From positions 186,001-217,099 of the forward strand of contig QPGO01000133.1 in assembly GCA_008632985.1 (NCBI GenBank): a stretch of DNA of 31,099 nucleotides, written 5' to 3'. This DNA is from Psammoneis japonica (Eukaryota). The translations under genes were made by a program, and so were the position numbers. The number at the start of each line of letters is the position of its first letter. The first letter of the stretch is position 1. The notes beneath the pieces were generated by a model. The model had not been told where the DNA came from. It searched no databases and saw nothing but the letters and a program-made list of their open reading frames with translations. This document shows, one piece after another, positions 1,937 through 3,350 of the stretch.

Positions 1937-3350
1937 TCAGCAAGGGTGGCAGCAAGAGGTGGAGGTGAAACAGGAGCTTGTCAACCTCTTCAGAGAGGGA
2001 GGAAGTGACGTCAGAAAGAAAAGAATTGGCAAAAGCACGTGGGAGCCAAGAGGCTGGCCACATGTGGAAGCAGGCACCAGAAGTGAGCTCGGGGTTGCAG
2101 GAGGGATCAGCAGCAGGGTTGAGAAAGGCAAGAGCATCACAGATGGAGGAGGCATTGGTTTGAGAGAGGGGTTGAGCTTGATGCCACAGGGAGCACCAAG
2201 CTTGGAGAAGCACCAAAGGAACCAAGGAAGAACAGGGACAGGGAGGAAGGTGTGGGCATCATCGATGCAGGAGCCAACACACACAGCAGAGCAGGGAGGA
2301 AGGTGCTGTTGAAGCTCTTGGTTGAGAGGGCAAAGGACTTCGGAGAGGACAAGGCAAGCAAAGACAGGGCCCAGGGGGCAATCTTGGGCAAAGTCCTCAC
2401 TTTGAGCGAATGAGAACCAGGAAGAGTCAGGGCGGCAGTGCCAGCAGTCACCAGAGTTCTGGCACACGATGTCGAAAAATGGGAGGAGGGGGCGGAGGGA
2501 TTCGCCGGAAGCCATGACAGCATGACAAGCATCATGGGAGACCTCATTGAACATGTTGACGAGGTCAAGGAGGAGGAGGACTTTGGAAGGAGCAGCCAAA
2601 GAAAGGCAGCACTCAATGCTGGTGTGAGCAGAGTGGGCCGGCAGGTGACAGAGGCCACCTTTGATGCCAACCCTGAACTGACCATCGGGAAGAAGGCATT
2701 TGGCAAATTCACAGCTGAAGAGAGTCATGGTGATGGAGCCAGAGATTTGACAAAGGGTGGTGCTGACACCAATGGGGTGAAGCTTGTTGATGTCAGAGGG
2801 GTCCTTGTGAAGGGCAATGAAGCAGTTGGAGGAAAGGAGAGGATGCATGGCCAGTGGAATCATGCCATTGAGGACAAGAAGAAGGAGGGCTTGAAGGGAG
2901 GAAAAGCAGGGAACCTGAAGGAGATTTGGTTGAGCAAAGGGTGCAGGCCTCAAGGAGATTGGTGGAGCCAGCAAAGACTCCAGCCAACAGCGGTGGCAGG
3001 CTTGCACCGACGAAGAGCAGAAAGAAGAGCTTCAGAGGAGAAAGTGCAATCGGATCATTGTTGGGAGACAAGGCAGAGTGAGTGGAAGGAGATGAAGCAA
3101 GGCCAGGCGGATGAAGGCAAGGCGGGCAGAGTTTGAGGATTTCAGGGAGGCACTGTGGTGCAACTTCAGCAACAGGAAAAGGGCAGAAGTGAGACCCGAG
3201 TGGACAGAATGGAAGTTGTCTTCATCGGCGCGCACTTGGAGTGGAACAGCAATGGGTGGAAGCAGAGAAATCGGGAGGCGTGGAAGAGCCGGAAGAGGAG
3301 GAGGCAGGGGAGAAAGCAGTGTGAGTTTCAGCATGTTCCCTCGGCGAGTC
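1937..3350 (-). mobile_element. Degenerate non-LTR retrotransposon reverse transcriptase (CRE/R2-like early-branching clade), inactivated
   Basis: The ORF at 1937..3007(-) carries RT motifs in order: FIALHK..KL(H)PIGV, QF(R)VGIKGG, LLDLVNMFNEV, FAQ(D)CPLGP and S(C)IDD (2258-2269). Frame breaks lie on both sides. The clade is assigned from motif memory only and the 5' boundary is approximate. Confidence 0.85.

Follow-up and report, generated by a model that had tools for sequence, protein, structure and literature searches.

In the chlorarachniophyte alga Bigelowiella natans, integrated foreign DNA is subject to a hypermutation directed at the dinucleotide TpA. According to the main text of a preprint, 231 of 302 nuclear point mutations in a mutation-accumulation experiment fell in two integrated viral regions, and 230 of these 231 were A→G or T→C changes, all at TpA (Mettrop et al., bioRxiv 10.64898/2026.01.13.699255). 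The same text reports 124 purged clusters and 324 TpA-depleted coding sequences (CDS) enriched for reverse transcriptase (RT), endonuclease-RT, and DDE domains; as the cause, it suggests that an ADAT2-like enzyme deaminates adenine in DNA (bioRxiv 10.64898/2026.01.13.699255). A term search of this main text gave no occurrence of ‘diatom’, ‘retrotransposon’, ‘CpG’, ‘tyrosine’, or ‘stop codon’. A process of this kind has been described before, in this one preprint; besides it, our literature search, which had most subscription-journal papers outside its scope, returned nothing on TpA-directed hypermutation and nothing for diatoms, and a search on B. natans elements that lack long terminal repeats (non-LTR elements) returned nothing relevant. 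Here we analyze a stretch of 31,099 nucleotides of contig QPGO01000133.1 (positions 186,001 to 217,099, hereafter the window), in which the decayed RT of an R2-like non-LTR retrotransposon has lost every TA dinucleotide and every Tyr codon.

The signature in the window is identical to the one reported for B. natans, with TpA converted to TpG or CpA on both strands, CpA and TpG rising as TpA falls, blocks on the kilobase scale, foreign or selfish DNA as the target, and RT Pfam domains among the depleted CDS of that alga. The purge in the window is saturated (three TA in 3.4 kb), whereas the active nucleocytoplasmic large DNA virus (NCLDV) region described in the preprint still has 3.3% TpA. The window also differs in its host, which is most likely a diatom (Stramenopiles) and not a chlorarachniophyte (Rhizaria), and in its target, a retrotransposon that can be analyzed at the codon level and on which CpG depletion is superimposed. 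In the window, the process is read from its sequence signature.

Two further systems invite comparison. Fungal repeat-induced point mutation (RIP) likewise introduces dinucleotide-specific, near-saturating transitions into blocks of selfish DNA while sparing host genes, but it makes TpA from CpA, lowers GC content, and creates stop codons, whereas the process seen in the window destroys TpA, raises GC content, and makes no stops except by TAA→TGA. The fungal pattern of C→T at CpA with an excess of TpA is absent from the window, where TpA is eliminated. In animals, APOBEC3 and ADAR enzymes cause a deaminase-type hypermutation of retroelements with a nearest-neighbor preference (a 5′ U for ADAR), but their substrate is cDNA or RNA, and the G→A or A→G changes they produce are strand-asymmetric. 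As to the target, the non-LTR elements that carry a restriction-like endonuclease (RLE), namely CRE, R2, R4, NeSL, and HERO, are outlined in PMC4640811 as having a zinc finger, RT, zinc finger, RLE layout. R2 inserts into 28S ribosomal DNA (rDNA) and CRE into spliced-leader (SL) genes.

Results

A TA-free and Tyr-free RT frame

The RT frame extends from stop to stop over positions 1937–3031 on the minus strand and contains 364 codons, among which are 28 Cys, 14 His, and no Tyr. Not a single TA is present in its 1095 nt, compared with 49.1 expected from base composition and 30.4 expected at the rho of about 0.62 that is typical of the TA-normal parts of the window. Its observed-to-expected (o/e) ratios are 0.25 for CpG, 1.82 for CA, and 1.45 for TG. 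The first-pass annotation had described this frame as Tyr-free and 356 residues long; the absence of Tyr holds, but the length has to be corrected to 364 residues from stop to stop, the smaller figure being counted from a GTG at 3007 that is without meaning as a start in a eukaryotic relic.

The frame lies within a TA-purged tract (106–3388) that is bounded by TA at 105 and 3389, has TA only at 1401 and 1932, and is also poor in CpG (rho 0.12–0.24 in the first three 1-kb intervals of the window). Because TA-free DNA can stop only at TGA, the openness of the frame is no sign of constraint. The six frames of 1932–3389 contain 14, 20, 5, 11, 3, and 13 stops, compared with 10–28 per frame in a TA-normal control, and open reading frames (ORFs) of up to 364, 240, 195, and 142 codons are found there.

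The frame belongs to an R2-like family

By Pfam alone the RT frame is barely recognized, its match to RVT_1 (E 0.11, 12.6 bits) being under the 29.6-bit cutoff. A word-index search returned one relative, P0001 (E 1.3e-8), in which BLASTP pairs LILLDLVNMFNEVS, FAQGCPLAGMFA, and AYLDD (motifs A, B, and C) with LLLLDLVNMFNEVS, FAQDCPLGPVFA, and SCIDD of the frame. An exhaustive search with P0001 yielded 621 proteins at E≤1e-3, of which 49 reached E≤1e-30; many are 1200–1360 aa long. The RT frame was matched by 137 of the best 150 of these relatives, with P0003 at the top (170.6 bits, phmmer), and it scored 204 bits against a family profile built from 23 long members. The RVT_1 cutoff is reached by 13 of 20 long relatives, while six fall under it and one has no match. 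These scores put the RT identity far beyond chance, and the R2-type C-terminal module of the relatives bears out the identification as a non-LTR RT made at first pass.

The long relatives share an N-terminal consensus finger of the form CxxC...HxxxxH, with a Pfam zf-C2H2_jaz match in one of them, and a C-terminal module that reads CxC..D..GDH.F.C....K...HN.IRD ... RPAD ... D.T ... K. The best PDB matches of the family profile are R2 proteins (9dou at 7.2e-11, 9nl3 at 1.3e-10, then 9nl2, 8gh6, and 8ibw, with R2 matches ranging to 2.2e-4), followed by 8c8j and group II intron RTs; a PDB search with the single sequence P0005 gave no match, and matches in NCBIfam, to group II intron RTs, stayed below threshold. 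The C-terminal 340 residues of L009, an intact metagenomic locus of the family, were modeled with AlphaFold2 from a 26-sequence alignment (predicted local distance difference test score 82.5, predicted TM-score 0.85). Foldseek placed R2 chains in the top six rows for this model, at E 0.04–0.4 with none at E≤0.001, and superposition on seven R2 C-termini with VIA-align gave Z scores of 11.2–14.7 (root-mean-square deviation 3.6–3.9 over 212–225 residues), the next-best being Prp8 with Z scores of at most 7.0 and HincII with about 2.9. The layout of the family is thus that of the RLE-bearing type, with zinc finger, RT, zinc knuckle, and RLE.

The relatives are like R2 elements (R2Bm, 8gh6/8ibw; R2Tg, 9dou/9nl3; Platysternon R2, 9nl2) in having a C2H2 finger and RT as well as a C-terminal Cys/His knuckle and PD-(D/E)xK-like module, and R2 is their best PDB profile and fold match by a clear margin. 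They differ from R2 in the sequence of the C-terminal module, which is only 10–13% identical. The window copy further differs in retaining the RT core only and in lacking an rDNA, SL, or snRNA target nearby. No rRNA, snRNA, SL RNA, or tRNA gene was found in the window (0 Rfam families, 0 tRNAs), and therefore no specific insertion target is suggested.

Within the RT frame, homology to the family is detectable over 1976–2911 (minus strand) by tblastn with 35 relatives of at least 900 aa and by hmmsearch, which corresponds approximately to residues 284–595 of the 1197-aa P0003 and to positions 338–599 of the 1251-position profile. The motif A region (VLLLLDLVNMFNE, 2543–2581, minus strand) is well preserved.

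Conserved Tyr and Arg codons were lost by TA-type and CpG-type changes

The polarity of the changes was read from an alignment of the RT frame with 48 relatives that cover at least 200 positions, in which 137 columns have a consensus of at least 50%. The frame agrees with the consensus at 77 columns and departs from it at 60, of which seven are TA→TG/CA changes, 10 are CG→TG/CA changes, 11 are other transitions, and 32 are unexplained. All five majority-Tyr columns have become Cys or His in the window copy (Y70C, Y142C, Y190C, Y198H, and Y255C), each by one TA-type step, and columns 42 and 112, in which Tyr is the plurality residue or nearly so, are Cys. The relatives have Cys or His in 11 of the 238 cells of the five majority-Tyr columns, and by our own arithmetic the chance of five out of five is about 2e-7.

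The conserved Arg residues follow the CpG route, with R85H, R94C, R95Q, R166H, R170H, and R243H lost via CpG decay. In the segments KLHPIG and TLCQI (2744–2785, minus strand), three near-invariant Arg (CGN codons), present in 46, 47, and 46 of the 48 relatives, have been lost to CpG→CpA/TpG changes and now read His (CAC), Cys (TGT), and Gln (CAA), exactly the LRPI→LHPI and LRRI→LCQI decay that the first-pass annotation had postulated. Since the protein family serves as an outgroup, TA and CG can be assigned as lost and TG and CA as gained, and the direction of mutation put forward in that annotation, TA→TG/CA, is upheld.

Purged and unpurged copies of the same family

A search of metagenome contigs gave 375 candidates, of which 96 were confirmed, and 80 loci were kept. 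In 77 of them the TA o/e of the element is 0.36–0.86, whereas three are purged, L012 (0.07), L016 (0.03), and L015 (0.26), and have Tyr contents of 0–0.7%. Over 3.6 kb, L012 shares 74.8% identity with L009, whose intact ORF has 1264 codons and 46 Tyr. At the 146 TA of L009, L012 has CA at 56, TG at 49, CG at four, and TA at six, with three changes in the reverse direction. None of the 44 comparable Tyr codons is kept in L012 (24 Cys, 17 His, and one each of Arg, Asn, and Gln), and among 17 Ile encoded by ATA, a codon class singled out at first pass, eight are now Thr and two are Met. With every Tyr lost and one stop in 1173 codons, L012 bears out the first-pass idea of missense and not nonsense changes. 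The TpA purge and CpG decay are separable, because the CG counts of L012 and L009 are virtually the same (202 vs 203); CpG decay may be linked to methylation. The purge has visible limits in the metagenomic copies: TA density recovers where the homology of L012 to L009 ends, and L016 has normal TA for its first 430 nt, after which TA vanishes. The presence of the signature in three metagenomic copies of at least two subfamilies may suggest that the process is common in marine protists.

The alignment of L012:1–3560 with L009:2050–5617 also has 159 C>A and 119 A>C differences among 876 substitutions, which could stem from the sense strand of this subfamily, strongly rich in C and A as it is, or from alignment noise.

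Nine Tyr-poor, Cys-rich fragments among the 150 database relatives were checked at motif C. The first position of the motif is His in P0123, P0079, and P0124, Cys in P0144 (SCIDD) and P0119 (SCLDD), Leu in P0108, and Phe in P0032, while P0115 is without coverage there. P0071, a close relative of P0119, retains SYLDD. The copies with Cys or His are further purged copies and not active CIDD enzymes. Active relatives that natively encode CIDD and are free of Tyr, which would have spoken against the first-pass interpretation, were not found in this set; the CIDD and CLDD relatives are of the purged kind.

A second pairwise comparison is offered by the window itself. A 396-bp repeat is present as copy A (14211–14606, seven TA) in a purged tract and as copy B (16931–17325, 29 TA) in a 680-bp TA-normal island (16629–17309) between two purged tracts. 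The two copies differ at 41 sites, 23 of which are TA in copy B and TG (13) or CA (10) in copy A, and the reverse is not seen at any site. At 14588–14589, TA of copy B is CG in copy A, so that both T→C and A→G have occurred on one dinucleotide. Since TA→CG is found in copy A as well as in L012, the purge can create CpG, which may explain why the interval 13001–15000 is not CpG-poor. It is possible that the island copy was inserted more recently or that it escaped. That the purge has affected one copy and not the other speaks against a mechanism triggered by duplication in the style of RIP. A 78-bp piece of the repeat recurs at 9821–9898.

Motif C and the state of the window copy

Motif C of the frame reads CIDD (TGC ATC GAT GAT at 2258–2269 of the minus strand, that is, from 2269 to 2258), in agreement with the first-pass annotation, which took its Cys to have arisen from Tyr by TAC→TGC. 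This TpA→TpG change is the sole one-step route to the observed codon. Among the 48 relatives, the position is occupied by Tyr in 36, Ile in six, Phe in three, Val in two, and Ser in one, with Cys in none, and in the 75 of 80 metagenomic loci that align there we found 45 Tyr, 17 Phe, four Leu, four Trp, one Asn, four gaps, and again no Cys. Tyr is also the commonest state in the well-supported clades that hold the window copy (8 of 20 other rows, 15 of 31, and 22 of 39). Read by parsimony, the TGC codon points to an ancestral Tyr, which we regard as highly probable. This reading is weakened by two observations. In a quick tree, the window copy, on a branch of length 1.52 inside a 40-member clade with support of 99, is placed weakly (support 47) beside a subgroup with Ile or Val at motif C, and four of the loci most similar to it have Leu there.

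These observations would fit a lineage in which motif C was never Tyr but Ile, Val, or Leu, with Cys arising by unrelated substitutions even though the purge itself is real. The 12 of 48 relatives with Ile, Val, Phe, or Ser and the 26 of 71 metagenomic loci (those showing a residue) with Leu, Trp, Phe, or Asn speak for such a history, as does the weak placement next to the Ile/Val subgroup. We nevertheless consider it unlikely, since TGC is at least two steps, including transversions, away from any Ile, Val, or Leu codon but one step from TAC, every other majority-Tyr column has likewise turned into Cys or His, Tyr prevails in each well-supported clade, and five other Tyr-poor copies have Cys or His at this very position, among them P0119 with SCLDD beside SYLDD in its kin P0071. 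A different objection takes the frame to encode an RT, functional or domesticated, to which CIDD is native and which avoids Tyr. That the frame is open over 364 codons and retains both catalytic Asp could be cited in its favor, yet no more than about 310 residues out of about 1250 remain, the invariant Gly residues of motif B are both Asp, four Arg columns conserved in at least 95% of relatives are lost, and the frame keeps 18 of the 27 columns that are conserved in at least 90% of relatives, compared with a minimum of 21 and a median of 27 in the relatives themselves. Other frames of the same DNA are open as well, with TGA as their sole stop, and no long relative without Tyr is found. A native CIDD enzyme is contradicted by these protein data, and we see next to no likelihood in it.

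In whole subgroups of the family (relatives P0015, P0016, P0024, P0011, P0027, and P0021 and loci L001, L004, L010, and L051), YxDD is replaced by I/V-MDD or LLDD. For a catalytic box, natural variation of this sort is unusual; P0027 has 1280 aa, and L001 can be read without a stop through nearly the entire family profile.

The first-pass annotation further held that the element was killed at its catalytic motif, and this part of the claim has to be revised. The Tyr→Cys step is highly probable, whereas its role as the cause of death is not supported, given the truncation and the loss of Gly in motif B. The motif C position appears to tolerate change, because long stop-free ORFs carry Ile, Val, Leu, Phe, or Trp there, so that Cys need not inactivate the enzyme. 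Most of the relatives with Ile, Val, Phe, or Ser are 900–1280 aa long, and Leu and Trp occur in near-full-length, stop-free metagenomic loci. In motif B (EDFAQDCPLGP, 2366–2398, minus strand), both Gly at or just before QG, invariant in 48 of 48 relatives, are Asp (GGC→GAC and GGT→GAT), by changes of neither TpA nor CpG type. With motif A retained, motif B reading QD, and motif C reading CIDD, motifs B and C are not intact, which fits a dead copy. The Tyr→Cys change counts as one lesion among many that disable the copy and is not a demonstrated cause of death.

The copy is also truncated. In tblastn with the 35 relatives, the window matches only over 1976–2911 and in a 23-residue piece at 2983–3051 in another frame. 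Profile positions 600–1251 have no match by tblastn or by an unfiltered six-frame profile search, which upstream gave weak colinear hints (E 0.6–1.7) reaching to 3221. Neither the N-terminal zinc finger (family profile search) nor the C-terminal zinc knuckle and RLE (tblastn and family profile) was detected in the window copy. The window copy is a dead internal fragment consisting of fingers and palm. The element fragment likely covers 1901–3300 (minus strand), over which the plus strand is 60–73% purine. The resulting pyrimidine-rich sense strand was considered as a further mutational signal and ruled out, the nearest relatives being natively rich in C and T; the purine-rich plus strand appears to be inherited from the family.

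Discussion

Origin of the TA-free state

We consider it probable that the RT fragment is silenced selfish DNA that was hypermutated in situ, at the DNA level and at TpA, with a slower CpG decay on top. After insertion into the chromosome, near-saturating A:T→G:C transitions specific to TpA would have changed TpA to TpG on one strand and to CpA on the other and thereby removed every TAY codon, including that of the YxDD Tyr (TAC→TGC). Such a process would make no stops, being able only to erase those of the TAA/TAG type, and ordinary CpG decay would have converted conserved CGN Arg codons to His, Cys, or Gln. By analogy, it would resemble in kind the targeted TpA hypermutation of B. natans, for which DNA adenine deamination has been proposed. 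Both strands are hit in the two pairwise comparisons, with 56 CA and 49 TG in L012 and 10 and 13, respectively, in the repeat pair.

Several points weigh against this interpretation. Of the 60 mismatches at conserved columns, 43 are neither TA- nor CG-type. The Tyr losses on the sense strand of the window copy comprise four TA→TG and one TA→CA (six and one when the plurality columns are included), a skew that contrasts with the balanced changes of L012 and the repeat pair, in numbers too small to interpret. The nearest relatives are 33–42% identical, so that the consensus is not the ancestor. CpG loss accompanies the purge in the window but not in L012, and the idea that the same enzyme or process acts here as in B. 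natans is an analogy.

The strand skew and the confinement of the purge bring up another route, in which ADAR- or ADAT-like enzymes edited the RNA, the first-strand cDNA, or both before integration, much as APOBEC3 does with retroviral cDNA, so that the element was inserted already purged. The purge stops near the element ends in L012 and L016, four of five Tyr losses in the window copy (six of seven with the plurality columns) are sense-strand A→G changes, and ADARs prefer U before the edited A, as stated in the main text of the preprint (bioRxiv 10.64898/2026.01.13.699255). The near-equal damage to both strands of L012 and the repeat pair, however, is impossible by RNA editing alone and sets them apart from the products of APOBEC3 and ADAR; the purge extends to sequence other than RT, comprising 1.9 kb without family homology and three tracts without RT; and the B. 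natans mutations reported there arose de novo in single-copy integrated viral DNA (bioRxiv 10.64898/2026.01.13.699255). We therefore find editing before integration improbable. If instead a RIP-like conversion of CpA/TpG to TpA had made the TA-bearing copies, the TA-free state would be the original one, and the repeat pair by itself, which gives no direction, would allow this. The protein-family outgroup contradicts it, in that the TA-bearing members keep long ORFs and conserved Tyr (1264 aa and 46 Tyr in L009) whereas the TA-free copies are Tyr-free and degenerate, and the host genes in the window are TA-normal; such a reversal is scarcely credible. A lesion on the T of TpA, such as a modified thymine mispairing with G, would have the same outcome by a different chemistry. 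The changes are strand-symmetric, and A→G and T→C are indistinguishable from sequence. The sole candidate named in the main text of the preprint is an ADAT2-like deaminase chosen by homology; we consider a thymine lesion rather unlikely.

Other purged tracts and neighboring genes

TA-purged DNA in the window is not limited to the RT. Within the first tract, the purge continues past the RT into 1.9 kb of different strand composition without family homology. Further tracts lie at 8766–10880, at 12879–16628 (patchy, with repeat copy A inside), and at 17310–21538, and the 771 TA of the whole window are nearly absent from the four tracts. When the thresholds of the preprint (rhoTpA≤0.43 and rhoCpA+TpG≥1.52) were applied per 1-kb interval, 13 of 31 intervals passed, including the runs 1–3000 and 15001–22000. 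Most purged tracts are also CpG-poor (rho 0.06–0.41), with 13001–15000 (0.76–1.0) as the exception. No Pfam domain of transposable elements or viruses was found in the 19 other ORFs of 1–3600 (E≤1) or, among 28 ORFs searched at E≤0.01, in the 21 lying wholly or partly inside the other three tracts, and a protein search with the 288-aa ORF at 19358–20221 (minus strand) gave no usable match.

Many overlapping ORFs of 100–290 codons occupy several frames of the purged tracts, with a Pfam match for the RT alone. They probably result from having TGA as the only stop and would enter annotations as false orphan genes.

The recognizable host genes sit in the TA-normal parts of the window and encode a GMC oxidoreductase, a MYND-finger protein, two ricin-B-lectin paralogues, an L15-type ribosomal protein, and a CDP-alcohol phosphatidyltransferase. 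The fourth tract ends a few bases from the stop-to-stop start (21541) of a TA-normal ORF of 416 codons (21541–22788) with a weak DUF273 match, and ORFs also lie no farther than about 500 bp from other tract edges. From 3400 to 5000, TA climbs gradually over tandem repeats of about 177–180 bp (3326–3626 and 3871–4553; units 75–78% identical), which are partly TA-depleted and stand between the first tract and the GMC oxidoreductase gene. An inverted duplication at 23037–27748 has arms that are 72–83% identical and a normal TA content; it holds divergent paralogous ORFs at 23040–25184 (minus strand), which has a ricin-B-lectin match, and at 25970–27745 (plus strand).

Host lineage and implications

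Two of these genes point to the host. Among named relatives of the GMC oxidoreductase ORF, the best comes from a diatom, Seminavis robusta (51% identity, E 3e-176), with no match of any kind above 51%. The L15-type ORF has best matches of 87–89% identity within a best-hit range of 69–89%, and all 14 organism-named rows among its best 120 are diatoms, including Cyclotella, Discostella, Seminavis, Leptocylindrus (two), Ditylum, Chaetoceros, Detonula, and names beginning with Synedr-, Step-, Cosc-, Thalass-, Cylin-, and Pseud-. Three of these were checked in the taxonomy as Bacillariophyta, and the rest we take to be diatom genera. The named homologues of both genes are thus diatom, whereas B. 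natans, a chlorarachniophyte, is rhizarian. From these protein matches the host is most likely a diatom, although the assignment rests on two genes.

Within the literature searched, the TpA signature described here would be the first sign of such a process outside chlorarachniophytes. New here are the apparent host lineage, the retrotransposon as a target, the saturation of the purge, and its demonstration at the codon level. Whether TpA hypermutation is a RIP-like defense in diatoms also, aimed at retrotransposons, saturating, sharply bounded, independent of CpG decay, and leaving stop-free, Tyr-free ghost ORFs behind, is a proposition for which we see the case as evenly balanced.

Should the host be a diatom, the destruction of TpA in selfish DNA would occur in a second lineage, phylogenetically far from the first, and the phenomenon would shift from the curiosity of one alga toward a general genome defense of the SAR supergroup. 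The genetic tractability of diatoms makes the search for the enzyme testable. The RT provides both a protein-based test of polarity and a codon read-out, in which Tyr turns into Cys or His and no new stops appear. For annotation, the consequence is that TA-purged DNA, with TGA as its only stop, contains long spurious ORFs that gene callers will record as orphan genes. For the elements themselves, it is a defense that disables proteins by missense changes rather than by truncation, and that probably also erases TA-rich signals.

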